A stretch of 64,000 nt of DNA from Acidobacteriota bacterium (GTDB lineage: Bacteria > Acidobacteriota > UBA6911). Of the stretch, positions 24,849-58,934 are shown one piece after another. The position numbers were made by a program, and so were the translations under genes. Numbering within the stretch: position 1 is the stretch's first letter; the number at the start of each line of letters is the position of its first letter. The stretch spans positions 4,288,001-4,352,000 of the forward strand of contig OY761556.1 in assembly GCA_963664705.1 (NCBI GenBank), in the 5' to 3' direction. The notes under the pieces are model-generated. The model was not told the DNA's origin. It saw only the letters and a list, made by a program, of their open reading frames with translations, and searched no databases.

Positions 24849-25799
24849 CTAGACGGCAGCCAGGAGCGCTCGTTTGACGAGCGTCTTGGCGATCTGGACT
24901 TTGTACTTGGTGGCACTCAACGGCTTGGCGTCTTCAACCGCAGCCGCGCCGGCCGCTTCGGCATTGGCTTCATTGATAGCCTTGCCTGCGATCGCCGCTT
25001 CGGCCTTGACCGCGCGATACGGTTTCGGGGCAACGGCATTCAGAGCAATCCTCGGAGCTCCTCCCCCCACCATCACGGCACAGTTGACGATCGGGAAATC
25101 GATCGACTTGCGGATGGCGAATTTGAGAAAAGCGCTCTTGGCACCGGCCGGAGGGGTCGGGACCTGGATTTCGGTGATGAATTCGCCGGCAGCGAGAACG
25201 GTGTTGCCGGGGAATTTGACATCAAAGAAATTCTCGGCATTGATCTTGCGCGTGTTGGTCACCACGGAGGCATTCAAAGCAATGAGAGCCGGGGCGACGT
25301 CGCTGGGATGAACGGCGATGCACTTGTTGACGTTGCCGAAGATGGAGTGATAGCGGTTGTCGCCCATCATAGCAAAGCAGGTCGTGCCACCCTTGCGGAC
25401 GCAAGGGAACCGGTTTTCCGGCTTCCGGAAGTACCAGCAGCGGTGGAGCTGAGCGATGTTGCCGCCGATGGTGCCCATGTCGCGGACATGGGGCGTGGCG
25501 ACGCGCAGAGCTGCCTGAGCCAGAGCGGTGTATTTCGCATTGATGTCCTTGTTGGCGGTGATATCCGCAAGGCGTGTGGTGGCACCGATTTTCAGGATAC
25601 CGGCTTCTTCCTTGATGTAATCGAGACCCGGGGTAACGGTCTTGATGTTAATCACGGCTTCGGGGTACGTGGGAAGGATGTTGTCCTTGAGCCGGCCGAT
25701 GAGATCGGTGCCCCCGGCAATGATTTCTGTTTTTCCGCCGGCAAGGGCAGTTTTGACCTCGGCCAGGGTTTTTGCATTCGTATGATTGAAACCTTTCAT
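24849..25799 (-). CDS. Xanthine dehydrogenase family FAD-binding subunit (PaoB/HcrB-like, with 4Fe-4S insert), copy 1
   Basis: AGGTDL, TIGGNIAQ, RCWYFR...C...C...C insert, HPSD and AIRKSIDFPIVNCA. Confidence 0.92.
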   Translation of the reverse strand: MKGFNHTNAKTLAEVKTALAGGKTEIIAGGTDLIGRLKDNILPTYPEAVINIKTVTPGLDYIKEEAGILKIGATTRLADITANKDINAKYTALAQAALRVATPHVRDMGTIGGNIAQLHRCWYFRKPENRFPCVRKGGTTCFAMMGDNRYHSIFGNVNKCIAVHPSDVAPALIALNASVVTNTRKINAENFFDVKFPGNTVLAAGEFITEIQVPTPPAGAKSAFLKFAIRKSIDFPIVNCAVMVGGGAPRIALNAVAPKPYRAVKAEAAIAGKAINEANAEAAGAAAVEDAKPLSATKYKVQIAKTLVKRALLAAV

Positions 25800-25811
25800 G
25801 AGTGTCTCCTC

Positions 25812-26537
25812 CTATGCCTTGCCCATAGCCTGAGCGGCTTCCATAATTGCGGTAGGATGCCGCGGGTAGGTTCCGCAGCAGCAGATATTGCCGGCGAGAG
25901 CCTGTTTGCAGTCATTCTCGGTCGGGTTGGGATTCTTCTGCAGCAGAGCCTTGGCCGAAACGACGAAGCCCGGAGTGCAGTAGCCGCACTGCATCGCGTC
26001 CCACTTGCAGTAGGACTGGATGAGGGAGCGCCATTTGGGATCGGCAGCAATGCCTTCAACGGTCTCGATGGATTTGCCCTCGCATTCGACCGCCAGGGTC
26101 GAGCAGGAGAGGACGGTTCTGCCGTCAATGTTCACGGAGCAGGAACCGCATACGCCGCGGTCGCACATCTGCTTGGCTCCGGTAAGACCGAGTTTGAACT
26201 GCAGGGTGCGCTGAAGAGTCCAATGGGGCTCGATGAGAACTTCGTAGTCCTTGCCATTGACTTTGAGCTTGGTGGTAATGGGAAGGACCTGTCCGGGATG
26301 CGCCTGGGCGAAATGGGCCTTGAGGCCGCCGTAGGTGTTGAAATCCTTGGCGCAGATCGGGCACCTGAAATTGGTGATGGTCGAAGGGGCCTCTGCAGCA
26401 GCAGCGGCAGCCGCTTCGGTAGACAGGGTCAGACCTGCTCCCAGAGAACTGCCGGCAACCACAGCACCGGCGCTTTTAAGGAAGTTTCTTCTTCCTATCC
26501 CAACTCGTTCACTTCCACGGTCGTCTTGATCGGTCAT
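25812..26537 (-). CDS. Xanthine dehydrogenase family [2Fe-2S] subunit with Tat signal and C2H2 zinc finger, copy 1
   Basis: GRRNFLK Tat motif; FRCPICAKDFNTYGGLKAHFAQAH; CDRGVCGSC, QCGYCTPG and GNICCCG. Confidence 0.92.
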   Translation of the reverse strand: MTDQDDRGSERVGIGRRNFLKSAGAVVAGSSLGAGLTLSTEAAAAAAAEAPSTITNFRCPICAKDFNTYGGLKAHFAQAHPGQVLPITTKLKVNGKDYEVLIEPHWTLQRTLQFKLGLTGAKQMCDRGVCGSCSVNIDGRTVLSCSTLAVECEGKSIETVEGIAADPKWRSLIQSYCKWDAMQCGYCTPGFVVSAKALLQKNPNPTENDCKQALAGNICCCGTYPRHPTAIMEAAQAMGKA

Positions 26538-26586
26538 ATTGAGCTCCTATTCCTTGGTAGATTAGTCCCACGGCGAACCTGTGTAA

Positions 26587-26600
26587 TTGACCTAAGTCAA
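26587..26600. promoter_or_regulatory. Crp/Fnr-type palindrome upstream of the Tat-[2Fe-2S] gene
   Basis: TTGAC-CTAA-GTCAA perfect inverted half-sites 50 bp upstream of the start. Confidence 0.6.
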
Positions 26601-29052: not shown

Positions 29053-29055
29053 TGT

Positions 29056-30039: not shown

Positions 30040-30084
30040 ACAGGAATGTTGGATTCGTGAAATGCACGGCCGAAGCCCTGGATT

Positions 30085-43504: not shown

Positions 43505-43725
43505 CCTTATCATTCAGGAGCATCTGCGAAGGCTTTCATGTGGCCTTTCGCTTCTTGAGCGCCTCCCTCGAAAGCTCGCGATGATCCGGGCACTAGATAT
43601 TTGAAAAAACACTCGATGTTCTTCAGTCCTGCCCTTGATTGTCCAGCGGTAAAGCTGAGAATCATCCGATCTGTTTTCCCGGACCGGCCGCAGGCAGGAG
43701 ATTCTCTCGAAAGGAGCAGTTCAAG

Positions 43726-44547
43726 TTGAAGATAATTGGTGAAAAGATCAACGGAACCCGCAAGCGCGTGCAACAGGCTATTATGGAACGCGATGCGAAA
43801 TTCATCCAGGATTTGGCTTTGAGCCAGGCAGCAGCCGGCGCTGACTGGCTGGATGCCAATGCAGGAACCGCCCCGCAACGCGAACCGGAAGATCTCATTT
43901 GGCTGGTTGAAAATATTCAGGCCGTGACCGAAACTCCGATCTGTCTCGACAGCGCCAATCCCGCGGCATTGGAAACAGCCATCAAGGTAGTAAAGAAAAC
44001 CCCGATGATCAACTCGATCAGCGCTGAACCGCACCGCCTGACTGGCGTGCTGCCGCTTGTTGCTCAATACAAGACTCCCGCGATTGCGCTGGCCATGGAT
44101 GAAAAAGGAATTCCAAAAACAAGGGAAGATCGCCTGAACGTCATTCGCAAGCTTCTCGGCGAAACCCGCAAAGTTGGAATTCCGGATGACTCCCTATATT
44201 TCGATCCCCTGGCGATGACCATTGCAACCGGGCAGGATAACGGCATGGTCTTCTTCGATACCATCCGTTCTATTCGCAGCGAATTTCCCGAAGTTCACAT
44301 TACCTGTGGCCTCAGCAATATCTCTTTCGGAATGCCGGCTCGCGCGTACATCAATCGCATCTTCCTGACTCTTGCCATGCAGGCTGGGCTCGACAGTGCG
44401 ATTTGCGATCCCAATGAACACGAGATCAAAACCACAATGCTGGCCACTGAGCTTTTGTTGAACCAGGACAGACATTGTCTCAAGTATACCAAAGCATTTC
44501 GCGCTGGAGTTTTTAACAGGCCACCATCCGGGGCCGGCAAGGCATAA
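43726..44547 (+). CDS. Methyltetrahydrofolate:corrinoid methyltransferase (pterin-binding, AcsE/MT2-like)
   Basis: TTG start after AAGGAG; IIGEKINGTRK, GADWLDANAG, LDSAN, INSIS and GLSNISFGMP. Confidence 0.92.
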   Translation: MKIIGEKINGTRKRVQQAIMERDAKFIQDLALSQAAAGADWLDANAGTAPQREPEDLIWLVENIQAVTETPICLDSANPAALETAIKVVKKTPMINSISAEPHRLTGVLPLVAQYKTPAIALAMDEKGIPKTREDRLNVIRKLLGETRKVGIPDDSLYFDPLAMTIATGQDNGMVFFDTIRSIRSEFPEVHITCGLSNISFGMPARAYINRIFLTLAMQAGLDSAICDPNEHEIKTTMLATELLLNQDRHCLKYTKAFRAGVFNRPPSGAGKA

Positions 44548-44606
44548 TCCGTTGGCAAGGAACTTTTGAATAATTTCTACTAAAGGAAGCAAAAAAGGAG
44601 AGCTCT

Positions 44607-45245
44607 ATGTCGAAAGAATTAATCGATGCCGTCGTTGATATGCGTGAAGAAGACGCTGTAAAGATTGCTGAAACCCTGCTGAATTCCGGGGCCGATCCGC
44701 TCGGTCTTCTGGACGACTGCCGTGAAGCGCTTGGCATTATCGGTGGCAAGTTCGCCGCTGGTGAATGCTTTGTCCCTGAACTGATTCTGGCCGGCGAAAT
44801 GCTGCGACAGGTTGGCGCGCTGGTAAAGCCCAGGCTTGCCACTTCAGGCGCGGGCGCCCAGAAAAAGATCGGCAAGATCGTCTTCGGAACGGTGGAAGGC
44901 GACATCCATGACATCGCAAAAGATATCGTGGTTTTCATGCTGGACATCAACGGTTTCGACGTAATGGATCTGGGCGTCGATGTGCCGGTTGCGAGATTTG
45001 TTGAGGCCGTAAAGGAATTCAAGCCTCAGGTCGTCGGTCTCAGCGGCTTCTTGACACTCGCTTATGACCCGATGAAAAACACCGTACAGGCCCTAAAGGA
45101 TGCGGGACTTCGGGACAGCGTCAAGATCATGATCGGCGGCGGGCAGATGGATGACCAGGTTGCCGCGTATGCAAAGGCAGATGCCTACGGCAAGGACGCC
45201 ATGGCAGCCGTTACCCTGTCCAAGGGATGGGTAGGGGCGAAATAA
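44607..45245 (+). CDS. Corrinoid (cobalamin-binding) methyl-carrier protein
   Basis: B12 cap domain (F.PELILAG), GTVEGDIHDIAK, DLGVDV, LSGFLT and MIGGG. Confidence 0.93.
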   Translation: MSKELIDAVVDMREEDAVKIAETLLNSGADPLGLLDDCREALGIIGGKFAAGECFVPELILAGEMLRQVGALVKPRLATSGAGAQKKIGKIVFGTVEGDIHDIAKDIVVFMLDINGFDVMDLGVDVPVARFVEAVKEFKPQVVGLSGFLTLAYDPMKNTVQALKDAGLRDSVKIMIGGGQMDDQVAAYAKADAYGKDAMAAVTLSKGWVGAK

Positions 45246-45247
45246 CC

Positions 45248-46591
45248 ATGCCAAAACCGGATAATTTCGATAGTTTATCTCCCGATCAGAAGCGTCAAGC
45301 GCGGCTGGATGCGTGGGTAAACCACGAGAACCTCGAATTTAAGAATCCGGAAGCTGAAAAAGCGTACCGGGAACGCGCTCAGATGTTTGTTGACGTTTTC
45401 CTGCTGAAAAAGCCCAAACGGGTGCCCGTGACTATTTCCACGGGCTTCTTCCCATTCCTGCACGCCGGGTTCACCTGCAAAGATGCAATGTACGATTATG
45501 CAAAACTCGGCAAGGCAATGAAGCAATTTCATACTGAGTTCATGCCTGACGCTACCGCGTCTGCGGGGCTTTACGCACCTGGCACCATTCTGGAAATCCT
45601 GGACTATAAGCTCTATCACTGGCCGGGCCACGGAGTACCGGAAAACACGTCTTACCAGTGCGCTGAAGCGGAATTCATGAAGGCGGATGAGTATGGAGCG
45701 TATCTGAACGACCCCAGCGATTATTTTATCCGCACTTACCTGCCTCGTGTCATGGGAGCGTTGGAACCATGGAAGGAGCTTCCGCCCTTCACGAACCATC
45801 TGGAGCTCCCGTTCATTCCGTGGGGAATGCTGCCCTTTGGTCTGCCTCATATTCAGGAAACTTTAAAAAAACTGATGAAAGCCGGCGAAGTCGCGCTGGA
45901 ATGGGCTGGGAAGGTCGCAGAAATTGACAGCGACAACATCACCAGCCTGGGGCTGCCGAAATATCAGGGCGGTTTCTCAAAGGCACCATTTGACGTCATC
46001 GGCGATACCATGCGTGGCACGCGCGCGATGATGCTCGACACCTTCCGCAAAAAGAAGGAGATCCTGGATGCCTGTGAGCGGAATATCCCTTTCATGACAA
46101 AAATGCCGTATGGAGCGTATAACTGGGGTGCGGCTCCAACAGTATTTTTCCCGCTGCATAAAGGCGCAGACGGCTTCATGTCGCCGAAGAGCTTCAAGGA
46201 ACTGTACTGGCCGTCCTTTAAGCAGGTCATGCTCAATCTGATTAACGATGGTATGATCCCATTCCTGTTTGTCGAGGGAAGCTATAACCAGCGGTTGGAT
46301 CTGATTACCGATCCCGATATCCCGGCTGGCAGCACCATCTGGTATTTCGACAAGACGAATATGAAGGAAGTCAAAAAGCATCTCCAGGGATGGGCGTGCT
46401 TCGCGGGCAACTTCCCTTCATCTCTCTTGAAAACCGGGACTCCCGAGCAGGTCAAAGAACACTGCACGCAACTGTTGAATGATCTTGCCGGAGACGGCGG
46501 ATACTATATGGTTAACGGCGCGGTGCTCGATGAGGCGAATGCGGATAATCTGCATACGTATATCGATACCGTCAAATCCTACAAATACTAG
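45248..46591 (+). CDS. Uroporphyrinogen decarboxylase-fold substrate:corrinoid methyltransferase (MT1-like)
   Basis: PKRVPV, APFDVIGDTMRG, FPLHKG, FMSPKSFKELYWP, CFAGN and GTPEQV; operon context. Confidence 0.82.
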   Translation: MPKPDNFDSLSPDQKRQARLDAWVNHENLEFKNPEAEKAYRERAQMFVDVFLLKKPKRVPVTISTGFFPFLHAGFTCKDAMYDYAKLGKAMKQFHTEFMPDATASAGLYAPGTILEILDYKLYHWPGHGVPENTSYQCAEAEFMKADEYGAYLNDPSDYFIRTYLPRVMGALEPWKELPPFTNHLELPFIPWGMLPFGLPHIQETLKKLMKAGEVALEWAGKVAEIDSDNITSLGLPKYQGGFSKAPFDVIGDTMRGTRAMMLDTFRKKKEILDACERNIPFMTKMPYGAYNWGAAPTVFFPLHKGADGFMSPKSFKELYWPSFKQVMLNLINDGMIPFLFVEGSYNQRLDLITDPDIPAGSTIWYFDKTNMKEVKKHLQGWACFAGNFPSSLLKTGTPEQVKEHCTQLLNDLAGDGGYYMVNGAVLDEANADNLHTYIDTVKSYKY

Positions 46592-46647: not shown

Positions 46648-46864
46648 ATTTTTGGGAAGTCCGTGGCTAAAAGGAGGCTATCGATCTGCCACGGGCTTTA
46701 TGAATTTTGAGGTAGCCACAATGCTCCCGCCCTTCACTTTCAACGGTTTTTTCTTTTGAAACAGGACAGCTTTGGATATGATCGGGGCCAGTTTCCAATC
46801 CAGCAGAGGACGAGTATGCGCAGGCAGTCCGCATTGTGGACCGGTGCGAAAAGGAATGGTGAGG

Positions 46865-47974
46865 ATGATGGACTCCCTAAAAATCCGCATTAATGGCAAG
46901 GAGGTTGATGGCAACCGGGGAATGACGGTTTTGCAGGCCGCAGAAAAGGCGGGAATCAGCATCCCCACACTTTGCTATCACAAGGATTTTATCCCTACAG
47001 GCTCCTGCCGCATCTGCGTCGTCGAAGTGGAAGGGTCTGGCAGGTTGATCGGATCCTGCCATACGCCCATTGCAGAAGGAATGATCATTCAAACGCATTC
47101 GCCGAAGGTCCTCTCCGCACGCAAAGCAACGATGGAACTGCTGCTGGCCGGACATACCGGGCCCTGCGTCGCGGATGTTCGAGCAGCCCAATGCGATCTG
47201 CATAGGATTGCCTCGGACCTCGAAGTCGCGCCGCCACGGTTCAGAGTAAAGCGCCCGCGCTTCTATACGATTGAAGATGTCAGCCCTTACGTGCACAGGG
47301 ACTTATCCAAGTGCATCCTGTGCTCCCGGTGTATCAGCGCCTGCAATGAACTCGCAGGCAAACGGGTCTTCGGGACAGGTTATCGCGGATTCGAGACCAA
47401 GGTCATTGTCGATAACGATGTTGCTATCGATAAAAACTTTTGCAGGGACTGCTACCTCTGCGTTGAATACTGCCCCACCAGCGCCCTGATCAAGGCCGGG
47501 CAACCGGAAGACAAAACGCGCGGCAAAAAAATGACTTCTGCATCGCCTAAGCCGCAAAAGCGGGATCGGCGATGCGGAAACCTTCTTCCAATCCTAAAAA
47601 AAGCGCAGGATCGTGCCCATTACCTGTCCCCGAAATTCATGACAAACACCGCTGATTCGCTGAATCTATCGGTAAGTGATGTATACGGAGTGTCGACTTT
47701 CTATTCTTACCTGTCCACACGACCGCTCGGGACCAATGTAATCCGAGTTTGCAAAAGCCTGCCCTGCTACCTGAAGGGATCAGAGATGATCCTGAAGAGC
47801 CTTGAGAATTCGCTTGGAATCAAACCCGGAGAAACGACGCGAGATAAGAGATTTTCCCTGGAATTGGCCAACTGCATCGGGGCGTGCGATCGCGCTCCCG
47901 CAATGCTGATCAACGAAGATGTTCACGGGAACCTGACACCAGGAAAGATATCGAAACTACTCAAGCAATACTAA
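46865..47974 (+). CDS. Fe-S fusion protein: NuoG/HydA-type N-terminal Fe-S module plus NuoE/HydC-type [2Fe-2S] domain
   Basis: IPTLC, GSCRICVVE, H-x3-C-x7-C, CILCSRC, CRDCYLCVEYCP; then VSTFYS, VCKSLPC and CIGACDRAP. Confidence 0.88.
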   Translation: MMDSLKIRINGKEVDGNRGMTVLQAAEKAGISIPTLCYHKDFIPTGSCRICVVEVEGSGRLIGSCHTPIAEGMIIQTHSPKVLSARKATMELLLAGHTGPCVADVRAAQCDLHRIASDLEVAPPRFRVKRPRFYTIEDVSPYVHRDLSKCILCSRCISACNELAGKRVFGTGYRGFETKVIVDNDVAIDKNFCRDCYLCVEYCPTSALIKAGQPEDKTRGKKMTSASPKPQKRDRRCGNLLPILKKAQDRAHYLSPKFMTNTADSLNLSVSDVYGVSTFYSYLSTRPLGTNVIRVCKSLPCYLKGSEMILKSLENSLGIKPGETTRDKRFSLELANCIGACDRAPAMLINEDVHGNLTPGKISKLLKQY

Positions 47975-48021
47975 TCTGCCGCCGGGAGTCCGGACCTCCG
48001 GGCACCTGAAGGAGAACGGCT

Positions 48022-49239
48022 GTGCAAAAACGGATCGTTTTGAAGAACTGCGGACTTGTCGATCCCAAGGATATCCGGTCCTACATCAAGCAGGATGGCT
48101 TCATGGCGCTTGAAAAAGCTCAGAAGCAGATGACTCCGGACCAGGTCATCGAGGAAGTCATCAAATCCGGGCTGTTGGGCCGTGGAGGAGCGGGCTTCTC
48201 CTGCGGCCTGAAGTGGAAGCTGGCCAAAGAGCAGTCTGAGAAGGAAAAATTCCTCATCTGCAATGCGGATGAGGGGGAAGTAGGAACTTTCAAAGACAGG
48301 TATATCCTGGAAAACGATCCTTTCACCCTGATCGAAGCTCTTGCCATTGCGGGCTGGGCGATCGGCGCATCCAAAGCCTTCATCTACCTTCGAGCGGAAT
48401 ATCGATTCCTGTCCGGACTCGTCCTCAACGCCATCAAACAATCGCAAAAAAAGGGATTTTTAAAGCACCTCGAGATTGAGCTGCGCGAAGGCGCAGGCGC
48501 GTATATGTGCGGAGAGGAATCGGGGCTCATGAATTCGATTGAGGGATTCAGAGGCGAAGCCCGCTACAAGCCCCCCTTCCCTCCGGCAAAGGGCCTCTGG
48601 GGCAAACCGACTGTCATCAATAATGTGGAAACTTTGATGAATATTCCTCAGATCGTCCTGAACGGCAGTGAATGGTTCAGGGGATTCGGGACGGAGAAGA
48701 GCAAAGGGACCAAGGTCTTTTCAGTGAGCGGCGATGTGGCCAGGCCCGGCGTTTATGAACTGGAACTTGGAAGCAGGCTGTCGGAACTGGTACTTGAGCT
48801 GGCATCCGCCGCAGAGACAAAGATGATACAGGTTGGAGGCGCCTGCGGACGAATTCTACCGGCCGAACTCATAGACACGCCACTTGCCTATGAAAGCATC
48901 CTGGGAGCCGGCGCCGTTACCGTCTTTGACAAGACGCGCGACATTATCGAAATGATGTGCCGGAACACCGAGTTCCTGGGCGAAGAATCGTGCGGTCGTT
49001 GCGCACCCTGCCGTGATGGTTCGGAGGCTATGCTGGATATATTGCATCGGCTGACCAATGGGGAAGGCGCAAGCGAGGACATCGGCGCGCTGGAAGATCT
49101 GTCAAGAGTGATGTCTCTCTCGGCTTTGTGCGGGTTGGGACAAACCGCATCGGTCCCGGTCATGGATAGCCTGAAGTATTTCAGGAAGGAATATGAAAGC
49201 CGGATCGAGCAGTCACGATTTTTGAGGACCCTTCGATAG
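48022..49239 (+). CDS. NADH-binding flavoprotein, NuoF/HydB-like (short form)
   Basis: GRGGAGF, NADEGEVGTFKDR, GAYMCGEE, NNVET, ESCGRCAPCR and LCGLG. Confidence 0.92.
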   Translation: MQKRIVLKNCGLVDPKDIRSYIKQDGFMALEKAQKQMTPDQVIEEVIKSGLLGRGGAGFSCGLKWKLAKEQSEKEKFLICNADEGEVGTFKDRYILENDPFTLIEALAIAGWAIGASKAFIYLRAEYRFLSGLVLNAIKQSQKKGFLKHLEIELREGAGAYMCGEESGLMNSIEGFRGEARYKPPFPPAKGLWGKPTVINNVETLMNIPQIVLNGSEWFRGFGTEKSKGTKVFSVSGDVARPGVYELELGSRLSELVLELASAAETKMIQVGGACGRILPAELIDTPLAYESILGAGAVTVFDKTRDIIEMMCRNTEFLGEESCGRCAPCRDGSEAMLDILHRLTNGEGASEDIGALEDLSRVMSLSALCGLGQTASVPVMDSLKYFRKEYESRIEQSRFLRTLR

Positions 49240-49293
49240 TCGGTAGCGGGCAGTGGCCACTGCCGACCGGGAAAAACCAGGAGTGAAACCGGG

Positions 49294-49905
49294 ATGCCTA
49301 AGAAGAAAACAGATACGACAGCTGCACTGACGAAGTACTCGTGCCCGTACTGCCGGGACACCTTTGATACTTTCGAATCGATTAAGGCACACTTCCTGGC
49401 CGGACATCCGCAAGGGATATTGCCCGAACCGGAAGGAACGATTCATATCACGGTCAACGGGCAGCAATACAAGCTCCAGGTTGAATCCGACTGGACGCTT
49501 CATTACCTGATCCACGACAAACTCGGACTGACGGGAACCAAACTCATGTGCGACCGTGGAGCTTGCGGATCCTGCACGGTAATCATGAACGGAAGACCCA
49601 TCCTCTCATGCATGACCCTGGCGATCGAATGCAATGGCCAGCGGATTGAAACCGTCGAGGGAATCGCCGCGGCAAACCATCCACTGGTTGAGGAATATGT
49701 CAAACACCACTGCATGCAATGCGGCTATTGCACTCCCGGGTTTGTTGTAACGGCAAAAGCACTCCTGGACAGGAATCTGAACCCGACGGAACAGGACATC
49801 CGCGAAGCGCTGGGAGGGAATCTCTGCCGTTGCGGCACCTATCCACAGCATCCTAAGGCCATTCTTCAGGCAGCCAGGCTGCTGCGGGAAGCCGCGACCA
49901 GATAG
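49294..49905 (+). CDS. Xanthine dehydrogenase family [2Fe-2S] subunit with N-terminal C2H2 zinc finger, copy 2 (no Tat signal)
   Basis: YSCPYCRDTFDTFESIKAHFLAGH; CDRGACGSC, QCGYCTPG and GNLCRCG. Confidence 0.92.
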   Translation: MPKKKTDTTAALTKYSCPYCRDTFDTFESIKAHFLAGHPQGILPEPEGTIHITVNGQQYKLQVESDWTLHYLIHDKLGLTGTKLMCDRGACGSCTVIMNGRPILSCMTLAIECNGQRIETVEGIAAANHPLVEEYVKHHCMQCGYCTPGFVVTAKALLDRNLNPTEQDIREALGGNLCRCGTYPQHPKAILQAARLLREAATR

Positions 49906-49917
49906 TCGGAGGACATC

Positions 49918-50901
49918 ATGAGGAAATTCACGCATATTGAAGCTCGAACAATCGACGAAGCGGCTTCGGCTTTGCGGAGATACGGAAATCGAGCAAGCGT
50001 TATCGCAGGTGGAACGGACATTCTGGGAAAAATGAAGGATGAAATCCTGCCCCGGTATCCCGAGGCTCTCATCAACATCAAATCAATTCCCGGCCTCGAT
50101 TTTTTCAGGGAAGAAGCGGGCGTGCTTCGAATCGGCGCACTGGCAAAACTCGAAGACATCGGGAAAGAACCTTTGATTCGTACAAAATACACCGCCCTTG
50201 CCCTGGCCGCAGCCAGAACCGCATCGCCGCATCTGCGCGAGATGGGAACCCTGGGAGGCAATCTGTGCCAGGATATTCGCTGCTGGTATTACCGCAATGC
50301 AAACAACCGGTTCCCCTGCCTTCGGAAAGGTGGAGGACGATGCTACGCCATTGATGGCGACAATCGGTACCATTCAATTATGGGCGGCAGTGTCGAGGGA
50401 GGTTGTTACGCGGTGCATCCCAGTGATACCGCCCCGGCCCTGATCGCCCTGAACGCCGGCGTCATGACTACAAAAAGGATGATCAAGCTGGAGGATCTTT
50501 TCCAGGTCGATGTGGCGAAAACCACAATTTTGGACCCGGATGAGATGATCACGGAAATTCACGTACCGGAACCATCGGCGGAATCCAGAAGCGCTTTTCT
50601 CAAATTCGCCATCAGAAAGGCTATCGATTTTCCGATCGTAAATTGCGCGGCAATGATCAGCACAGCCGCCGGCAAGATCACGTCCGCACGCATCTGCCTG
50701 AATGCCATCGCAGTGAAACCGTACCGTGCAGTAAAAGCGGAGGAAGCGATCCTGAAAAAAACCATTGATGAAGGGATTGCGGAAGAGGCGGGAAAAGCCG
50801 CTATGGCCGATGCAAAACCGATGGAACGCAATGGCTACATGGTTCAAATTGCTCGAGTCCTGATCAAGAGAGCAATCCTGGCCTGCCGTGAGATGAATTG
50901 A
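49918..50901 (+). CDS. Xanthine dehydrogenase family FAD-binding subunit, copy 2
   Basis: AGGTDI, TLGGNLCQ, RCWYYR Fe-S insert, HPSD and AIRKAIDFPIVNCA. Confidence 0.92.
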   Translation: MRKFTHIEARTIDEAASALRRYGNRASVIAGGTDILGKMKDEILPRYPEALINIKSIPGLDFFREEAGVLRIGALAKLEDIGKEPLIRTKYTALALAAARTASPHLREMGTLGGNLCQDIRCWYYRNANNRFPCLRKGGGRCYAIDGDNRYHSIMGGSVEGGCYAVHPSDTAPALIALNAGVMTTKRMIKLEDLFQVDVAKTTILDPDEMITEIHVPEPSAESRSAFLKFAIRKAIDFPIVNCAAMISTAAGKITSARICLNAIAVKPYRAVKAEEAILKKTIDEGIAEEAGKAAMADAKPMERNGYMVQIARVLIKRAILACREMN

Positions 50902-51143
50902 TGCGCATCACGGTAAATATCTATGCGCACCTCAGGCACCACCTTCGACATGCGGAGGACTCCATCAGGCTGACGACATGGGAAGTGCCTGACGCCACCA
51001 CAACGGCCCAGGTATTGAAGAAGCTGAACCTGCCGAAGGAAGTCAACGTCACAGTATTGGTAAATAACAACAGCGTTCATCAGGAAGCTATTCTGAAAGA
51101 GGGCGATATCGTCCACATCCTCCCGCAGATGGGAGGCGGATAA
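50901..51143 (+). CDS. MoaD/ThiS family sulfur carrier
   Basis: Beta-grasp size, LVNN, LKEGD and C-terminal GGG. Confidence 0.88.
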   Translation: MRITVNIYAHLRHHLRHAEDSIRLTTWEVPDATTTAQVLKKLNLPKEVNVTVLVNNNSVHQEAILKEGDIVHILPQMGGG

Positions 51144-51145
51144 AA

Positions 51146-51227
51146 ACGAATTACGAGTTACGAATGACGAATGACGAATGCAAGGATCAGCCATACCATA
51201 ATTCGTAATTTGTTATTCGTAATTCGC
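51146..51227. repeat. Inverted pair of heptamer arrays (ACGAATK x5 / AATTCGT x4)
   Basis: ACGAATT ACGAGTT ACGAATG ACGAATG ACGAATG ... AATTCGT AATTTGT TATTCGT AATTCGC. Confidence 0.88.
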
Positions 51228-51246
51228 ATTATACCAAGGAGGGTTG

Positions 51247-52485
51247 ATGAGTCAGCAACGAGCATCTGCGCAGCAAAAAACACCGGCATATGCCTGGGTA
51301 GTACTATTTGCTCTTTATATGGCCACTCTGGCTTCACCTCTCAATTTATTCAAATTGCCGCCCGTGATGACCACCATCGTGGACGCATTTAAGTTATCGA
51401 GCGCTCAATCTGGCGATTTGATGTCCATTTTCTCGATTATGGGATTCGTCCTGGCAATCCCTGCAGGCTACATCCTGAAGAAATTCGGAATCAAACTCAC
51501 CGGACTCGTTTCGGTTGCTGCCGTTGCCATTGGATCAACCGTCGGCGCCGTTGCGCCCACTGCCCAAATGCTCTTCGTCGGCCGTTTTATCGAGGGGGTT
51601 GGCATGGGACTGATAATGGTTGCGGCGCCGTTTGCCATCAGCTTGTGGTTCCCGGCACATAATCGCGCCCTGCCTACCGGAATATGGGCCACCAGCGTAG
51701 GTATCGGGAACGTCGCCACACTTTTGCTCGCTCCGTCGATGGCCGCAAGTTATGGCTGGCAATCCGTATGGTGGGCAGGAGCTATCTTTTCGGCATTGGC
51801 ATTTGTGCTGTTTGCCCTGCTTTTCCGCTTGCCCCGCCCAGAAGAAATGTTTGACGCCCCGGCTCCAGCCAATGCTGTCGAAGAAGCGCCTCCGAGCCTG
51901 CTGAAGGGCATGGCCAACCGAGACTTCTGGATGATCAGTATTGCCTTTGGATGCTACAACCTGGTTGTCATGGCTATGTGTACTTTCCTGCCCACCTACC
52001 TGGAAGTCGAACAGCATTACTCGCGCGTGTTTGACAAGGGCATCATGCTGAACGCCTCGTTTATCACAGCCTTTGTCATGCTGGCCTCGATTTTTTCGGG
52101 ACCAGGCGGCGGCCGGATATCCGACCGGTTGGGAAAACGCAAGATGGTCGTTGCCATCCCCTACTTCCTGATGGCACTGACCTTCCTGGTTCCCTTTACG
52201 ATTACGGGCTGGATGATTCCGGCCTATATGATCGTATTCGGACTGGTCGGCGGACCGATTGCTCCCATTCTGCTTGCGTCCGTGCCGGAAGTATCCCCGA
52301 AACCTCAATTGATCGGCATCGGGATGGCCGTAGCAGCATTGGGGCAAAACATTGGAATGTACATCGGGCCAAGCCTCTTTATCCGGATTCAGGCGGCAAC
52401 GCACAGTTGGGCCGTGGCGGGTTATTGGATGATTCCGATTTGCTTGATTGGAATAATTGCCACCTGCATGACAAGGGTCCGCTAA
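51247..52485 (+). CDS. MFS transporter
   Basis: About 12 TM helices; GRFIEGVG, WFP and GRISDRLGKRK motif A; GGAGG RBS. Confidence 0.9.
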   Translation: MSQQRASAQQKTPAYAWVVLFALYMATLASPLNLFKLPPVMTTIVDAFKLSSAQSGDLMSIFSIMGFVLAIPAGYILKKFGIKLTGLVSVAAVAIGSTVGAVAPTAQMLFVGRFIEGVGMGLIMVAAPFAISLWFPAHNRALPTGIWATSVGIGNVATLLLAPSMAASYGWQSVWWAGAIFSALAFVLFALLFRLPRPEEMFDAPAPANAVEEAPPSLLKGMANRDFWMISIAFGCYNLVVMAMCTFLPTYLEVEQHYSRVFDKGIMLNASFITAFVMLASIFSGPGGGRISDRLGKRKMVVAIPYFLMALTFLVPFTITGWMIPAYMIVFGLVGGPIAPILLASVPEVSPKPQLIGIGMAVAALGQNIGMYIGPSLFIRIQAATHSWAVAGYWMIPICLIGIIATCMTRVR

Positions 52486-52499
52486 TCGCTTCATGACTG

Positions 52500-52551
52500 T
52501 CGTGAGATTCGTGGCAGGAAGGGGTTAGAAAAACTGCCACGAATTTCACGA
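52500..52551. terminator. Long hairpin between convergent genes
   Basis: TCGTGAGATTCGTGGCAG ... CTGCCACGAATTTCACGA (17/18 complementary). Confidence 0.65.
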
Positions 52552-52558
52552 ATTGAAA

Positions 52559-54868
52559 TTAGTTCCGCGAAAGTCTCGTAAGATCGAGTGCCACAAAATT
52601 TTTCGATTCCACACGAACCACCTCTTTGTTTTTTGAAAGTTCTTCAAACACACTTCGGATGGGAGTTCCCGGACCGCAGGGAGCATAGGAAAGAGCTTTC
52701 GGCATGATCAGGAGATCGGGATGAGCCCATTGCAGGTATCCCCGGAACGCTTCCTGCGATGCAAACAAACGCCAGAACGGAGGTGCTGTCTGTTCAAAAT
52801 CCTCATGAATGCAGGAGAGCGCATGTAGAGCGGTCTCTTCGCCACCCGCAAACCCCACGCAGAGCCCTTTGCCAGGATTGGCCTGAAGGTATTCCTCTAA
52901 CTCCCAAGCCCCCGCCCTTCGCAAACCGGACTCAATCTCAGCCTTCCTGTCGAACAGGGTCTTATTCAATACGAAGCGGAAGGGCTGGGTCCCCGGATGC
53001 CAGGACCAGTGGGATACAAACATGATCGGCAGTTGCAGCAGTAGGAAACAGATGCTGCCGGCCATCAGGATGGTTCTCGTTTTTGAGGAAGAGGATGCCA
53101 GGACTCCTGCGATGGAGAGGATTGCCAGGACAACCGGGATGGCATAGTAGTTTCCGTCCGTAAAACCCTGATCGGGTGTCCGCACCAGGCAGGCGGTGAT
53201 TATGCCGCCCACCATAACCGGCAGGCTGGCCAGCAGGAACCGGATCTGCCGATTGAAGCGAACAGCACGGAATGCAAGGAGGATCAGCAAGACACAAACA
53301 AAGAAAAAACCGGCATTGCCGGGCCAGGCCATGACATAATGCGAATAGGCCTTTGGATTGAAAAGCAGTCGTCCCCAATAAAGAAAAAACTCTTTATAGC
53401 TGTCTATTGGCGCTCCGGAAAAAATAAATCCGGATTCACTCCACGGATACTTCGGTGTCAGCCCAAGCAATTCCCACTTGTCGACGAATGCCGGCATGGT
53501 TGGAGTTCCGGTCAATAGCCAACTTCGCGACATCAAGCCGATACCGGAACAAAAGGCGATTCCGAGCGCCACAAGCGGCGAATATTTCCAGCCGCCCCCC
53601 GTTTTGCCGATGGTATCGGAAGTACTCCATATCCCGTTCCTTGCCGTGCAGCAATGCACCCAGACTCCGGTGGCCAGGAATCCAAGCATCAACATGGGCG
53701 CATAGGCATAGGCGCTAATCTTCGTTCCAGCCATTCCCAGGACCGCGGCCAAGCCATAGCAAAAATCGGGAGCGCTCCGATGCTTGCTCCAGTTCCATAA
53801 AAACAGTACTGCAATGAAGGCATACAGCGATTGAATCGTATCGGTCTTTGCCGTGGAAGCCATGTTGGAAAAAGCCGGAATACTGCCAACCAGAGCGGTG
53901 ACAAGGAATGCCAGCGTGCGCTCGATATCGAGGCTGCGGACAATCCCGTAAATCGCCAGCAGGCAGATCGCAAACAACACCACGTTAAAGGGGATGATGA
54001 AGGATCCATGGTTCAGCTGAGCCAACGGCAACGTCAGAATCTCAAACTGCTTGGGATAATAATAGACATGATGCATCAGTCTGAGATTGTCAAAGAGCGA
54101 GTGCGGACCTACCAAAACACGCTCCGGCCGCAGGCCGTACCACATCGAATCATAGTCGTTGCCGTAATTGGCCTTCCCGAATTGAGTCAGGATCAGAACT
54201 CCAACGATCAGCGCGGCAAACCTATCCCTCGAACCCAGACGCTCGAAACCGCGAGAAAGCATTACCGAAAGAGGGATCATGGGAGCATAAGCGATGGAAC
54301 AACCGGCGAGGATAATGGAATAGACGCGCAAAGATGCCGCAGTACCCAGCCCAAAGGCAGACAACAGAAGCGCGCCGAAAGTCCACGCTGCAATTCCAGT
54401 TATCATCCGAAGCAGATAATGCCGAATATCCTGGCTCCGGCCATCCTCTGCCCGGGCAAGCCGTTGCACGGCACTCCCTACCTGAATCAGGCATTCCAGC
54501 AGCACCCAGGCCACCGCAGCGGCTAAAAGAACCGAATGTATCTGAAGATACAACATGGAAAGGATGAGGACGACGGCAGTGGCGAACCAGGGGACGCGTT
54601 TTACCATCGCCACGAGAGCCAGAATCAGATAAATGACCAAAAGCTCGATTCCGCCCTGCACAGTTTCGGGTTGCTTCAGATGCCAGGCGTAGGTTTTCCA
54701 GAGGAAAAAGTAGGCCGGCAAGGCAATGCAGATAGCTGCCAGCAGCCCAATTATCGCTGACGGGATCGCCATGGTGCGTGAAGACGTTTCAATCGGATTG
54801 CTTATCTCTGAGGGATTTCTGTGGTTCAAGATTTTTTCCAATAGCGGTTGTGCCGATGGCCTATTCAT
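52559..54868 (-). CDS. Large polytopic membrane protein, possible GT-C-fold glycosyltransferase
   Basis: Many TM helices; YDSMWYGL, YYPKQFE, AKTD and TGTP pattern reminiscent of ArnT/PMT-like families. Confidence 0.55.
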   Translation of the reverse strand: MNRPSAQPLLEKILNHRNPSEISNPIETSSRTMAIPSAIIGLLAAICIALPAYFFLWKTYAWHLKQPETVQGGIELLVIYLILALVAMVKRVPWFATAVVLILSMLYLQIHSVLLAAAVAWVLLECLIQVGSAVQRLARAEDGRSQDIRHYLLRMITGIAAWTFGALLLSAFGLGTAASLRVYSIILAGCSIAYAPMIPLSVMLSRGFERLGSRDRFAALIVGVLILTQFGKANYGNDYDSMWYGLRPERVLVGPHSLFDNLRLMHHVYYYPKQFEILTLPLAQLNHGSFIIPFNVVLFAICLLAIYGIVRSLDIERTLAFLVTALVGSIPAFSNMASTAKTDTIQSLYAFIAVLFLWNWSKHRSAPDFCYGLAAVLGMAGTKISAYAYAPMLMLGFLATGVWVHCCTARNGIWSTSDTIGKTGGGWKYSPLVALGIAFCSGIGLMSRSWLLTGTPTMPAFVDKWELLGLTPKYPWSESGFIFSGAPIDSYKEFFLYWGRLLFNPKAYSHYVMAWPGNAGFFFVCVLLILLAFRAVRFNRQIRFLLASLPVMVGGIITACLVRTPDQGFTDGNYYAIPVVLAILSIAGVLASSSSKTRTILMAGSICFLLLQLPIMFVSHWSWHPGTQPFRFVLNKTLFDRKAEIESGLRRAGAWELEEYLQANPGKGLCVGFAGGEETALHALSCIHEDFEQTAPPFWRLFASQEAFRGYLQWAHPDLLIMPKALSYAPCGPGTPIRSVFEELSKNKEVVRVESKNFVALDLTRLSRN

Positions 54869-54899
54869 CAGGAATCGATGCCTTAGTGGAATTCAGGTA

Positions 54900-55976
54900 T
54901 CATTCAGGCTTCCCCTGGAATCCCAGGTCCTCGATTTTTGAAGAAGTGAAGACGCCGCGCTTGATCAGTTTCTCGACCATGGTGCTGCAATAGTCACACT
55001 CACTACACTCCTTATCACAGGCAGTGACTTTGTCGAAAAACCCGATTTCATCAAGACTTTTGTTATCCAGGTGCATCAGGTGCGACATGGCAACAGAATA
55101 GAGATTGCCCGCCATAAGCTCCAGCAGATCACCATTCCAGCTTTCATTCATGTACGCATTCAGAGCTCTGAGCAGCATGCTCCTGGAACTGGTTCTGCCC
55201 ACGATTTTGAAGTATCCCGTTATGTCAGCATACCGCACGGCATCTTCCGGCCTGATCCAGCCTGCTTTCAGGATCTGGGAAGGGTCTGTTTTTGACAGCT
55301 GGATGCAATTGAGGCTGAAAACATTATCCTCAGACTTGACATTTTTGCCGGCTCCCGGCTTTCTTGATTTGTGCGAGATATAATTGAAGTGGAATTTGCG
55401 GAATGCGCACTGGAACAGACATCCTTCATTGACCATCAGCTTGATCTCCAGCCCGGTCTTCTCTTTGATACGCTTCAGCAGCGCAGGATTCCGATTGATA
55501 TCCACGTCCGGTGTAATTGCATCCGCGCCGGCTTTCCTGAAAATCACTGCTTTCTGAACACAATCGATGTCGCTGAGAACGGATGCGCAGATTTCAATGT
55601 TGGGGAATCGTCTCCGCACCTCCCTGATATAAAGAGGATTTGAGATCGTGACCGCTTCCACTCCCAGCTCCACATGAGCGCGCGCCAGGTAATTCATGGT
55701 GGAATTCAGTATGTCGGACGAATACCAGTCACTCCCTTCACAAATCGAATTGAGAAGCAGATTGACCCGAATCCCTTCGTTGTGAATGGATCCAACCACA
55801 TTGGCGAATTCTCCAAAATCCATTTCGGGAGCAATTCGGCCGGACCCGGAAAACTCCTGCGGGCCGGAAAGATATATTTCGCGGATTCGATTCCCATTGA
55901 GCGTTTTCAGCCGGAATATATCCGGCAGAGTCGCGGGATCGTTATTGTAGGGAACAGAGAATTCAAGATGGGGCAT
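54900..55976 (-). CDS. Peptidase U32 family Fe-S protein
   Basis: GSGR, NLLLNSIC, AVTISNP, NEGCLFQCAFR, WIRPED, FKIVGR and C-terminal CDKECSECDYC. Confidence 0.88.
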   Translation of the reverse strand: MPHLEFSVPYNNDPATLPDIFRLKTLNGNRIREIYLSGPQEFSGSGRIAPEMDFGEFANVVGSIHNEGIRVNLLLNSICEGSDWYSSDILNSTMNYLARAHVELGVEAVTISNPLYIREVRRRFPNIEICASVLSDIDCVQKAVIFRKAGADAITPDVDINRNPALLKRIKEKTGLEIKLMVNEGCLFQCAFRKFHFNYISHKSRKPGAGKNVKSEDNVFSLNCIQLSKTDPSQILKAGWIRPEDAVRYADITGYFKIVGRTSSRSMLLRALNAYMNESWNGDLLELMAGNLYSVAMSHLMHLDNKSLDEIGFFDKVTACDKECSECDYCSTMVEKLIKRGVFTSSKIEDLGFQGKPE

Positions 55977-55999
55977 GATGCCTCACTTCGATTGACATT

Positions 56000-57091
56000 T
56001 TACGATTGCTCATTGACGATTGGCGATTCGGCGGCCAGAAGCACGCGGACAATTTCCTGTAACTGCGTGGCGTCAAAGCCCACCTCCAGGAAACGGATAC
56101 GCGAATCCGGCATAAGCCCCGCCCAGGGTTCTGTCAGAATACCCATGCTTCCGATGCGCGGGGCAATGCGATCGTCTGCCCTAACCAGCAATTCCAGAGT
56201 CCTGGTCTTCTCCATTTCCCGGGTGTTGATGCACCATAGAATAAGGTCAGGCCGGCAAAATCGCGTCACATCCGCAATCATCGCAATTTGCTGAGGATCA
56301 TCCGCCAGATAAACCAATGTCGGACCGTTTCCGAGCAACGATAGAATTTCGGAATCGAGCGGAAGCCACTCTCTCGCCTGGCTGGGATTCAAGCCTTTAT
56401 ACAACCCATCGGCAAATTCAGACCGAATGCCGACAAAGCGGTTGATCTTTGCCGATTGGATAATGAAATCGGGAGCGGCCAGAATGGTGTTGCGCGGCTG
56501 GGTGAAATAAAAAGCGGCAGATTCCTGAGGGATGGGGACGTCATCCCACGGAGCATAGGCTGCGGACTTGGCCCGCTCTCCCTGCTTCAACGTCCTTGCA
56601 TCCACTCGCAGAATCCGGTCCGGACTCAACAGCTTTACGAGGGATAGGACTACCCATTTTTCATACCCGCCTTGAAACAAGTTGGGCCAGACCGATGCAA
56701 TCTTCGCGGCACCGGCCTGCTCAAATCCGTCGATTGTTTCTTTTCCCTTCAGCAGGTCGAACAGCGGGTCATACAACTCTCGGATCATGCTATCCGAAAC
56801 ATTCCGCAGGAATCTCTGGATACGGCTGGCTTCCGGAGACTCTTCCCAAGATATGCAGCCGAACAGACTCTGCTCTGCCTCGGCATAATGCTGTCGCAGC
56901 TCGTTCGCCCGGTTGAGCAAATCCGGGAACTTGTGCTCTATGAAAGTGGCTCTTGCCGCATTAAACCGAAGATAAAACTCCGTGCGCACATCCTCAGGGA
57001 TGCTTGTTACCGATTCCTGAATTTCAATCTCGGAATTGTCCCGAATGAAACTCAACAGATTTTCATATGCCTGACCAAAATTGTCCGACAT
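56000..57091 (-). CDS. Hypothetical protein (weak PD-(D/E)xK-like motifs)
   Basis: 363 aa ORF in tandem with the U32 gene; YEKWVVLSL, PDFII and RPDLIL. Confidence 0.7.
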   Translation of the reverse strand: MSDNFGQAYENLLSFIRDNSEIEIQESVTSIPEDVRTEFYLRFNAARATFIEHKFPDLLNRANELRQHYAEAEQSLFGCISWEESPEASRIQRFLRNVSDSMIRELYDPLFDLLKGKETIDGFEQAGAAKIASVWPNLFQGGYEKWVVLSLVKLLSPDRILRVDARTLKQGERAKSAAYAPWDDVPIPQESAAFYFTQPRNTILAAPDFIIQSAKINRFVGIRSEFADGLYKGLNPSQAREWLPLDSEILSLLGNGPTLVYLADDPQQIAMIADVTRFCRPDLILWCINTREMEKTRTLELLVRADDRIAPRIGSMGILTEPWAGLMPDSRIRFLEVGFDATQLQEIVRVLLAAESPIVNEQS

Positions 57092-57217
57092 GGCACCACG
57101 TCCACCTGTGTAGATGTATTGAGTCTGGAATCCTGGGAAATACGAAGCGGGAACACAGTACGACCCTACCGGTCATATCCGCATTCAGGGAGCTCATTCG
57201 AAAATACAAGAACGTGA

Positions 57218-58180
57218 TCAGGCGCAGCCGAGTATTGCCCTCTTCACCATTGTTTTGGCGATAGGAATCTTCCACTTGTTTCTTTCGCCGGGGAGCGTCT
57301 TGGCCGTTGCCACGGCAGCGGCCCCAGCCGCATCCGCATTGGCTTCATTGATAGCCTTCCCCTTTATGGCTTCTTCTGCCGGCAGAGACCTATAGGGCGT
57401 ATTGTATACGGCATTCAGGCACACCCGGGCGTTTCCGCCCCCCACCATCGCCGCACAATTGACGATCGGGAAATCGATGGATTTCCGGATTGCGAACTTG
57501 ATGAAGGCACTCTTCACGCCTGCGCCAGGAGCAGGGATTTGAACTTCGGTCACAATCTCATCAGCGGCCAGCACAGTCGAACTCGGCACTTTCATATCCC
57601 AGAATTGCTCGGCTTCGATCAGGCGCTTATTGGTCTTGATCTTTGCATTCAAAGCCACGAGGGCAGGAGCCGTATCGCTCGGATTCACCGCAAGACACAT
57701 GCTTTTGGCACCGAATATGGAGTGGTACCGGTTGTCTCCGGCCATGGCGAAGCATTGCTTGCCACCCTTTCGGATGCAGAAAAATCGGTTATCCGGGTTC
57801 CGGAAATACCAACACCGATTGAACTGGCATATGTTGCCCGCAATGGTTCCCATTTCGCGGATATGTGGAGTCGCGGTTCTGTGCGCCCCCTGCGCCAATG
57901 CCGTGTATTTGGTCCGAATCAGATCATTTTGGGCAATGTCTTCCAATCGAACCAGTGCGCCGATTCGGAGCATGCCGCCCTCTTCCTTGATGGAATCCAT
58001 ACCTGGAATGGTCTTGATGTTTACCAGAACCTCAGGATAGTCCGGAAGAATCTCAAATCTCATGGTGCCGAGAATATCCGTTCCCCCTGATATGATCGCA
58101 GCCTTGCCGGCCCGGAGTATCGACGAGGCTTCATCGACTGTCTTTGCATTCACATGAGCAAATTTCTTCCAAGTTTTCAT
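57218..58180 (-). CDS. Xanthine dehydrogenase family FAD-binding subunit, copy 3
   Basis: SGGTDI, TIAGNICQ, RCWYFR insert, NPSD and AIRKSIDFPIVNCA. Confidence 0.92.
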   Translation of the reverse strand: MKTWKKFAHVNAKTVDEASSILRAGKAAIISGGTDILGTMRFEILPDYPEVLVNIKTIPGMDSIKEEGGMLRIGALVRLEDIAQNDLIRTKYTALAQGAHRTATPHIREMGTIAGNICQFNRCWYFRNPDNRFFCIRKGGKQCFAMAGDNRYHSIFGAKSMCLAVNPSDTAPALVALNAKIKTNKRLIEAEQFWDMKVPSSTVLAADEIVTEVQIPAPGAGVKSAFIKFAIRKSIDFPIVNCAAMVGGGNARVCLNAVYNTPYRSLPAEEAIKGKAINEANADAAGAAAVATAKTLPGERNKWKIPIAKTMVKRAILGCA

Positions 58181-58254
58181 TTCAGCTCCTAACCCAGAAA
58201 GGGTTTTAGGGACTCCGTCATAGAAGCGTTTTCCTTACCGAATGACTCCGGAAA

Positions 58255-58934
58255 TCAGGCGCGCGGCTTCAGATTTTTAGCAGCTTCCATCACGGCCAGC
58301 GGATGTCGCTGATAGGTGCCACACCGGCAGAGATTTCCGCCAAGAGCATCTCGAACGTCCGCTTCCGTCGGGTGACTGTTTTTATCCAGAAGCGCTTTGG
58401 CCGTACAGACAAAACCGGGAGTGCAGTACCCGCACTGAAATGCGTTATTGTCTATATACGCCTGAATGATCGGGTGCTTTGCTTTGGCAATTCCTTCGGC
58501 GGTCTCGATAACGGCACCATTACACTCGCAGGCCAACGTCATGCAGGACAGAATCGGTCTTCCATTCATAATCACCGTACAGGAACCGCAGGCTCCCTGC
58601 CCACCACACCAGTCTTTGGGGGAGGTATAGCCAATCTGGTCACGAATCACCTGGCGCAGACTCCAATGCGGTTCTACCGCATACCGGTATTTCCACCATT
58701 TACCGTCAGTTCGATGGTGGTCATGTCTGCAGTGATCTTGACTGGAGCGGCACCTGCCGGTTTTTCAGCGGGAACACTCTTCTTAGTCTGGGCAGTTGCA
58801 AGCTCGGTCACCGCAATGGAACCCAGGGTGGGAGCACCGACCACCAGTCCGGCATCCTTCAGGAAATCGCGGCGGGATATGTGCAATCCTTCCTTGCTTT
58901 CCTGTTCTGCATTCTTGTCTTTTTGGTCTGGCAT
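58255..58934 (-). pseudogene. Tat-signal [2Fe-2S] subunit, copy 3, split by a single-base frameshift near 58690
   Basis: N-part has SRRDFLK...ELTVNGG; the shifted frame continues KYRYAVEPHWSLRQVIRD...CGQGACGSC-like motif, QCGYCTPG and GNLCRCG. Confidence 0.8.

Follow-up and report, generated by a model that had tools for sequence, protein, structure and literature searches.

Three small/medium subunit pairs in one window

We analysed a 64,000-nucleotide stretch of DNA (the window; bases 4288001–4352000 of the 6.89 Mb single-contig genome of an Acidobacteriota bacterium, 98% complete with 6% contamination) carrying three gene pairs, each of which encodes a small [2Fe-2S] subunit (S) and a medium flavin adenine dinucleotide (FAD) subunit (M) of the xanthine oxidase family. 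The pairs (S1/M1, S2/M2 and S3/M3 for pairs 1, 2 and 3) lie where an initial annotation, made from the DNA alone, had placed them, and all six genes match the Pfam families expected of S and M in this family (Table 1). As described there, all three M proteins contain a four-Cys insert and the shared motif AIRK[S/A]IDFPIVNCA; the four Cys of the M1 insert align with those of PaoB (5g5g_B), and M1, M2 and M3 are 60–64% identical to one another. The claim that the 64 kb hold no large subunit (L), which has the molybdenum cofactor (Moco) fold, also stood: a genome-wide search gave no MoCoBD_1 match within the window, and the nearest L genes lie at 4.179 and 4.707 Mb. The small subunits differ at their N-termini, for which a twin-arginine translocation (Tat) leader plus finger, a finger only and a Tat leader only had been proposed. 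S1 matches TAT_signal (E 4e-4) and zf-C2H2_4 (E 4.7e-5), although both matches are under the Pfam cut-off; by eye, S2 shows CxxC-x12-H-x4-H and no twin-arginine (RR) motif, and S3 shows RRDFLK and no finger. The C-R-C motif of S1 reads C-C-C.

The S3 frame is broken in the window into 58674–58934 and 58255–58650. Because one extra base occurs at 58692 in contigs of four of four sequencing runs from two studies, and because close homologues of S3 are single open reading frames, the frameshift is an assembly error, and the four runs rule out a pair 3 pseudogene. Contigs of X1–X3, all from one sample that may be the source of the window, carry 48000–60000 in one piece with 0 other letters, which excludes mis-assembly as the reason for how pairs 2 and 3 are arranged. 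At pair 1, contigs run across each unique flank and across the direct S-to-M junction; none covers the whole 1.64 kb repeat, whose depth is about 3–6 times background, as expected for a repeat.

A surplus of orphan large subunits in one clade

A genome-wide count of MoCoBD genes, a check proposed with the initial annotation, returned 24 L genes (27 matches, three genes being matched twice), alongside 10 M genes and 15 Fer2_2 matches. Nine L genes are conventional, and each of them has an Fe-S partner of its own, either next to it or fused to it. The remaining 15 share no more than 28% identity with the conventional ones; a quick, midpoint-rooted IQ-TREE run on 41 rows groups them in one clade (SH-aLRT 100) with three sub-clades: LH (nine genes on a long stem, 1.22), LE (five genes) and LA (one gene, at 2.24 Mb). 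All 15 are full-length open frames, and the partner L proteins show the hammerhead and Moco-binding fold of the family, with MoCoBD_1 over cut-off. Thirteen of the 15 have no S or M within 5 kb; two adjoin both, as S-L-M at 6.00 Mb and as S-M-(347 aa)-L at 3.09 Mb. There are six S/M sets to match: in addition to the three pairs of the window, pair 1 has three further copies. The genome therefore shows the gene pattern of the GAOR2/GAOR3 system discussed below, M/S pairs without L together with surplus orphan L genes. One of its L genes has several closest homologues that are 89–95% identical, in Acidobacteriota records. TatC is present twice, as is XdhC, along with several MocA/MobA-family genes.

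Separately, 25 AFOR_C matches (tungsten-type aldehyde oxidoreductase family), many of them divergent, make up a second large expansion of pterin enzymes in this genome; two lie near divergent L genes (446 kb and 3.01 Mb).

Each pair matches its own sub-clade of large subunits

Inspection of homologue neighbourhoods, likewise suggested with the initial annotation, placed relatives of every pair in operons with the divergent L clade. Loci fetched from many phyla with LH as bait contain S1-LH-M1 operons, and S1-type genes adjoin LH in 52 of 52 fetched loci, a count that is biased in that most of these loci were LH-baited. S2-type genes adjoin LA in 5 of 13 fetched loci and S3-type genes adjoin LE in 7 of 44; in this typing six duplicates were dropped, and 11 more distant S genes under the identity thresholds were left untyped. 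Pair 3 homologues stand beside LE in genome G013 and in several metagenome contigs. Pair 2 orthologues lie 3' of NuoG/E- and NuoF-like genes; in some genomes the cluster also includes LA (one gene or two), in others it has no LA. In the 24 genus genomes, counting the matches listed and setting aside short fragments by eye, L matches numbered 223 and M matches 71; M lies within 3 kb of 19 of 99 LH, 1 of 85 LE and 12 of 39 LA-like genes. Eighteen of 26 M1-like genes are beside LH, and LE, counted together with LA-like matches, occurs in all 24 genomes.

These data suggest that the pairs are the S and M subunits of xanthine-oxidase-family enzymes that probably assemble in trans, each with its own sub-family of scattered L proteins. 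Docking onto large subunits encoded elsewhere, one of two options in the initial annotation, thus gains support from the 13 orphan L genes of one clade and from the homologue operons with that same clade.

Several observations weigh against this assignment. Fragmented assemblies inflate the share of orphans in the 24-genome tally. S1/M1 was not found in four LH-carrying genomes of the 24 (G001, G013, G021 and G022; the S1 search covered 14 of the 24, the other 10 having an M1-like match), and in G013, which is 99% complete, no S or M lies near any of 8 fetched LH regions, a result that would fit cross-use of S3/M3 by LH. At one locus (L118) an LH gene follows an S2-LA-LA-M2-moaD cluster. The Tat leader proposed for S3 gives no Pfam TAT match. 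Collapse of near-identical repeats could also explain the missing S1/M1: in G020, the contig ends within S1 next to LH, an indication that such collapse can hide S1.

The relatedness of the three modules (M 60–64% identical), the four genomes with LH and no detected S1/M1, and the difference that two of the modules carry a Tat motif could instead be taken to favour a fully combinatorial system, in which any S/M pair docks onto any of the 15 L proteins and both location and electron outlet are chosen independently of substrate. We consider this unlikely, since no cross-type operon occurred among the 64 loci with a typed S beside L and since the Arg of the C-R-C motif is lost from S1 (55 of 57 sequences, the other two having no readable motif) in step with the altered LH, whereas every S2 and S3 with a readable motif retains it. 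The free interchange of modules entertained in the initial annotation is thus not supported: S, where it has an L neighbour, is always type-matched.

Pair 1 arose by excision of a large-subunit gene

Pair 1 recurs at 67 kb, 3.09 Mb (3.089) and 6.00 Mb (5.998), the copies being 95–99% identical in DNA; M1 is 99% identical to its counterparts at all three, and two of the three further copies lie in operons with L. In the 6.00 Mb operon (5.999 Mb), S ends in VMKGGA, and the ribosome site of M comes after the L end, KALGKA. The S of the window, like those at 67 kb and 3.09 Mb, has the ending AMGKA, after which comes the ribosome site of the 6.00 Mb operon M, so that the terminal MGKA of S1 represents the last codons of the deleted L gene. 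This shared end and ribosome site indicate that excision of L from an S-L-M operon made a cassette, copies of which arose afterwards. Another Acidobacteriota record (L094) has an S with this ending, which none of the S-L-M operons listed shows, so the excision is probably older than this strain.

The three pairs had been called paralogous; three are indeed present, but pair 1 is a copy of S-L-M operon genes and no independent paralogue. The initial annotation had also allowed that homologous pairs might routinely sit next to L and be separated here by mis-assembly or recent deletion. Pair 1 homologues do routinely flank L, and the pair did arise by deletion of L; a cassette intact at three loci, with the same junction in L094, is however unlike recent decay or mis-assembly.

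This origin of pair 1 by L deletion and its presence as near-identical copies, together with copy numbers that differ among genomes, might suggest that orphan pairs and orphan L genes are leftovers of operon break-up and duplication, with only the two intact operons making enzyme. We regard this as decidedly unlikely, because each of the 15 L genes has a full-length open frame, the intact pairs 2 and 3 are conserved without L at the same locus in many relatives, LE adjoins an FAD gene in 1 of 85 cases yet persists (with LA-like matches) throughout the genus genomes, and no other partner for LE or LA exists in this genome. That the pairs act alone as Mo-independent flavin/Fe-S oxidoreductases, the second option of the initial annotation, is scarcely credible: pair 3 lacks an adjacent L in 37 of 44 loci (many on short contigs) and pair 2, following a NuoE/F-like module, could be an electron relay, but homologues of all three types lie in operons with L, unpartnered L genes of matching clades share the genome, and PMC4273604 reports that PaoA export is blocked without PaoB or PaoC.

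LH departs from the family at the active site

In LH, the catalytic Glu gives way to His (GISHS where the family has GxGE) in 69 of 70 proteins from fetched loci (one is truncated) and in 119 of 120 database homologues. This Glu is bovine Glu1261 (PMC4726530) and is called essential in the family by a review (PMC13653126). The GGGFG loop reads GG[K/R]YCDW in 69 of 70 locus proteins and 120 of 120 database homologues, and the Arg loop reads QHCP, without Arg, in 118 of 120, although its register varies with alignment method, which counts against this last comparison. We take the GGGFG Mo loop and the pterin-binding Arg loop, both visible in PDB alignments, to be motifs of the family; LH lacks them along with the Glu, whereas LE and LA keep both Glu (GIGE or GIAE) and Arg. 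In profile alignments, LH His747 falls on the Glu of carbon monoxide dehydrogenase (CODH) and HcrA, while Cys276 falls on the Gly that follows Phe. Among full-length representatives of 50%-identity clusters (128 of 150 listed), His occurs in 9 of 128; the loop Cys is present in 9 of these 9 and in 0 of the 119 others, and Asp309 and Asp541 are invariant in the nine and nearly absent elsewhere. The nine, which share 34–49% mutual identity, are one lineage, pointing to deep conservation and not to independent co-evolution.

The LH model (predicted local distance difference test score (pLDDT) 82.4) has 1rm6 as its top match (E 9e-52), with template modelling scores of 0.76–0.80 to 1rm6, 1ffu and 1t3q. 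LH keeps Gln681 (70 of 70) and the DxG and NxxDY/EYK motifs; Gln681, DxG and NxxDY presumably bind pterin dinucleotide, which LH probably still does. Its metal site has probably been rebuilt from Cys276, Asp541, His747 and possibly Asp309, on Cys/Asp/His loops that we assume surround Mo as in known structures, and such rebuilding likely precludes the standard Glu-base mechanism. We tentatively raise the possibility, with less than even confidence, that LH is a new catalytic class with Cys276, Asp309, Asp541 and His747 as ligands, in which one exported module in four copies would run up to nine enzymes in one anaerobe; with three of the residues on Mo-lining loops, the same tentative reading would allow a Cys-ligated Mo, a further metal next to Mo, or a metal site without pterin.

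Two more specific assignments were rejected. LH Cys388 is not claimed as the exact CODH copper ligand, its register being method-dependent and the Cys absent from distant members of the His clade, and replacement of a phosphate-binding Ser by Asp541 was ruled out because the Ser aligns one residue earlier. In the LA protein (2240556–2243225, L033), the Arg loop reads R-C-E-Q, with Cys right after Arg as in the CODH copper-binding loop; RCE at this position is common to many clade members.

LH is found in Acidobacteriota, Desulfatiglandales, Oscillospiraceae and spirochaetes, and the cultured Sporobacter termitidis DSM 10068 (L067) has an intact S-L-M operon with LH. Because LH lacks the essential Glu, automatically assigned names such as 'CO/xanthine dehydrogenase' are probably wrong for it. 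An atlas search with an LH homologue returned generic names only, and no paper on a His/Cys clade of the xanthine dehydrogenase (XDH) family or on this system was found in the open-access literature, subscription papers being outside the search.

Among 34 non-acidobacterial LH genomes, XdhC is over cut-off in 27 and MoaC in 19; 10 of the 34, drafts whose completeness is not established, gave neither a MoaC nor a MoeA match. Five rumen-type Oscillospiraceae/Clostridiales assemblies (G058, G061, G064, G072 and G074) carry several LH genes and no MoaA, MoaC or MoeA match, with XdhC over cut-off in four and a conventional L in four. Gene absence was dropped as an argument for Moco independence of LH, since it does not discriminate: the assemblies are drafts, four of the five examined keep a conventional L, and incompleteness or cofactor salvage explains the pattern equally well.

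Neighbouring genes

Table 1. Features of the window discussed in the text, in window coordinates.
Feature	Position	Strand	Description
M1	24849..25799	-	FAD_binding_5 and CO_deh_flav_C over Pfam cut-off; PaoB/HcrB-type four-Cys insert
S1	25812..26537	-	Fer2_2 over Pfam cut-off; 2x[2Fe-2S], Tat-like leader and C2H2-type finger
NuoG-N/NuoE-like fusion and NuoF-like gene	46772..49239	+	Directly 5' of pair 2; conserved there in relatives
S2	49294..49905	+	Fer2_2 over Pfam cut-off; C2H2-type finger, no Tat motif
M2	49918..50901	+	FAD_binding_5 and CO_deh_flav_C over Pfam cut-off; four-Cys insert
MoaD/ThiS-like sulfur carrier	50898..51143	+	Ends in GG; overlaps M2 stop
U32-family protein	54900..55976	-	Downstream of pair 3; single-copy; homologues in 22 fetched loci
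363-aa protein	56000..57091	-	Homologues beside this enzyme family in 41 fetched loci, across phyla
M3	57218..58180	-	FAD_binding_5 and CO_deh_flav_C over Pfam cut-off; four-Cys insert
S3	58255..58934	-	RRDFLK leader, no finger; Fer2_2 at 58255–58650, over Pfam cut-off; frame split in window

The 363-aa protein has homologues in this genome at 3088256–3089299 (between M and L) and at 1482535–1483635. It gave no Pfam or PDB sequence match, and its model (pLDDT 88.6) matched only restriction-endonuclease-like and GTPase folds, the best at Z 7.9 and within background; it is possibly an accessory factor, a candidate for maturation or regulation. On the plus strand 5' of the NuoE/F-like genes (43639–46591) lie a pterin-binding methyltransferase, a corrinoid protein and a URO-D-family methyltransferase, the last a gene type with at least 13 paralogues in the genome. 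Close to pair 1 (16637–24819) are genes for a quinol-type nitric oxide reductase, hemerythrin, a polyferredoxin and NrfH/NrfA-like cytochromes c. The MoaD-like gene is followed by a short intergenic element (51146–51230) with several 78–80% identical copies in the genome, and a 769-aa multi-pass membrane protein (52559–54868, minus strand), which has no Pfam or NCBIfam match and was not found in relatives' loci, lies between pairs 2 and 3. A promoter scan gave fewer sites than shuffled sequences did.

Clues to location, electron outlet and substrate

Where both S and M could be read in LH operons, an RR-motif S accompanies a short M in 14 loci, and an S without RR accompanies an M of about 780 aa, carrying an extra Fe-S and nicotinamide adenine dinucleotide (phosphate) (NAD(P))-binding domain, in 15; the pattern search missed one further RR-motif S/short M locus (L051), in which the RR is visible in the sequence. 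This split fits exported versus NAD(P)-linked cytoplasmic versions. It follows phylum and so represents one or a few events, not 30. Pair 2 has a short M and no RR motif in S; the NuoE/F-like genes upstream are likely to be the outlet to NAD(H) of its enzyme.

As to substrates, plant-derived aromatic compounds are no more than a guess of ours. Hosts of LH include Sporobacter, Papillibacter and Desulfatiglans, which degrade aromatic compounds. In addition, corrinoid methyl-transfer genes stand upstream of pair 2, and the closest enzyme with a solved structure is an aromatic dehydroxylase.

Comparison with known enzymes

Sharing of an M/S pair is known from the glyceraldehyde oxidoreductases GAOR2/GAOR3 of Sulfolobus tokodaii (PDB 4ZOH), where purification and N-terminal sequencing revealed common M and S subunits (PMC4726530); there too an adjacent M/S pair without L is common to L genes at distant loci. 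The principle is therefore not new. GAOR2/3 comprises one M/S pair and two L proteins with the catalytic Glu, whereas the present genome has three module types, 15 L genes in matched sub-clades, Tat-like leaders, zinc-finger-like N-termini, a four-Cys insert in M and nine L proteins with His for Glu, the assembly here being deduced from genes.

E. coli PaoABC, a periplasmic aldehyde oxidoreductase (PDB 5G5G), likewise has a Tat signal on S and four Cys inserted in M; among PDB sequences, M1 is matched best by PaoB and a Methylobacillus medium subunit. According to PMC4273604, the signal on S carries the PaoABC trimer out, and export fails without the partners. PaoABC is one operon, unlike the window pairs, and the subunits tested fall far below the NCBIfam cut-offs for PaoA (322; S1 113.8, S2 128.2) and PaoC (1180; LH, LE and LA 110–170). 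A separate, more PaoABC-like operon lies at 6.11 Mb.

The best sequence and structure match of LH is Thauera aromatica HcrCAB (4-hydroxybenzoyl-CoA reductase, 1RM6), which resembles the LH operon in its S-L-M order and in an extra Fe-S insert in the FAD subunit. Identity is only about 19–20%, with 154 bits against a cut-off of 995. The motifs differ as well: GGGFG, the loop Arg and the Glu of HcrA correspond in LH to GGKYC, a loop without Arg, and His. The TIGR03193–5 cut-offs for that reductase were missed by S (136–141 of 258), M (129–158 of 405) and L (153–250 of 995), and none of the subunits tested reached an NCBIfam equivalog.

Enterocloster urolithin dehydroxylase UxdFOC (PMC12658268) also has its genes ordered S-L-M, and its FAD subunit is long, carrying a second domain of the FAD/NAD(P) kind, a layout resembling that of Firmicute and spirochaete LH operons. 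UxdF is only 18 kDa, and the UxdO alignment shown there ends ALG[F/I]GE, with Glu kept, which excludes Uxd as an LH member; by eye, the UxdO C-terminus in that alignment is like the conventional operon at 6.18 Mb and unlike LH.

Discussion

If the pairs do assemble in trans with their matching L proteins, the S/M dimer would act as a scaffold, as in Sulfolobus GAOR2/3, with L setting the substrate, and electrons would pass between the pterin-metal site, the two [2Fe-2S] clusters, FAD and the extra [4Fe-4S] cluster. It is plausible by analogy with PaoABC that S sets the location. Types 1 and 3 would likely be exported through the Tat leaders of S1 and S3, which, like that of PaoA, would bring the entire trimer into the periplasm; type 2 is likely cytoplasmic with its NuoEF-like module, where S2/M2 would remain with LA and use those upstream genes for electron exchange with NAD(H). 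LE and LA, with catalytic Glu and loop Arg kept, are probably Mo hydroxylases or reductases. Judged from sequence, the modular genetics appears to be a large-scale, clade-matched version of GAOR, and the Cys/His site predicted for the LH partners would be the new and most surprising part.

In trans assembly would explain the surplus of XDH-type L genes over partners in genomes of this genus. The pairing rule (S1/M1 with LH, S2/M2 with LA, S3/M3 with LE) makes heterologous expression possible, and the cultured Sporobacter termitidis strain makes the LH site directly testable. The Sulfolobus principle of a shared scaffold would thereby extend from two enzymes to about 15, with export possibly decided by the scaffold.

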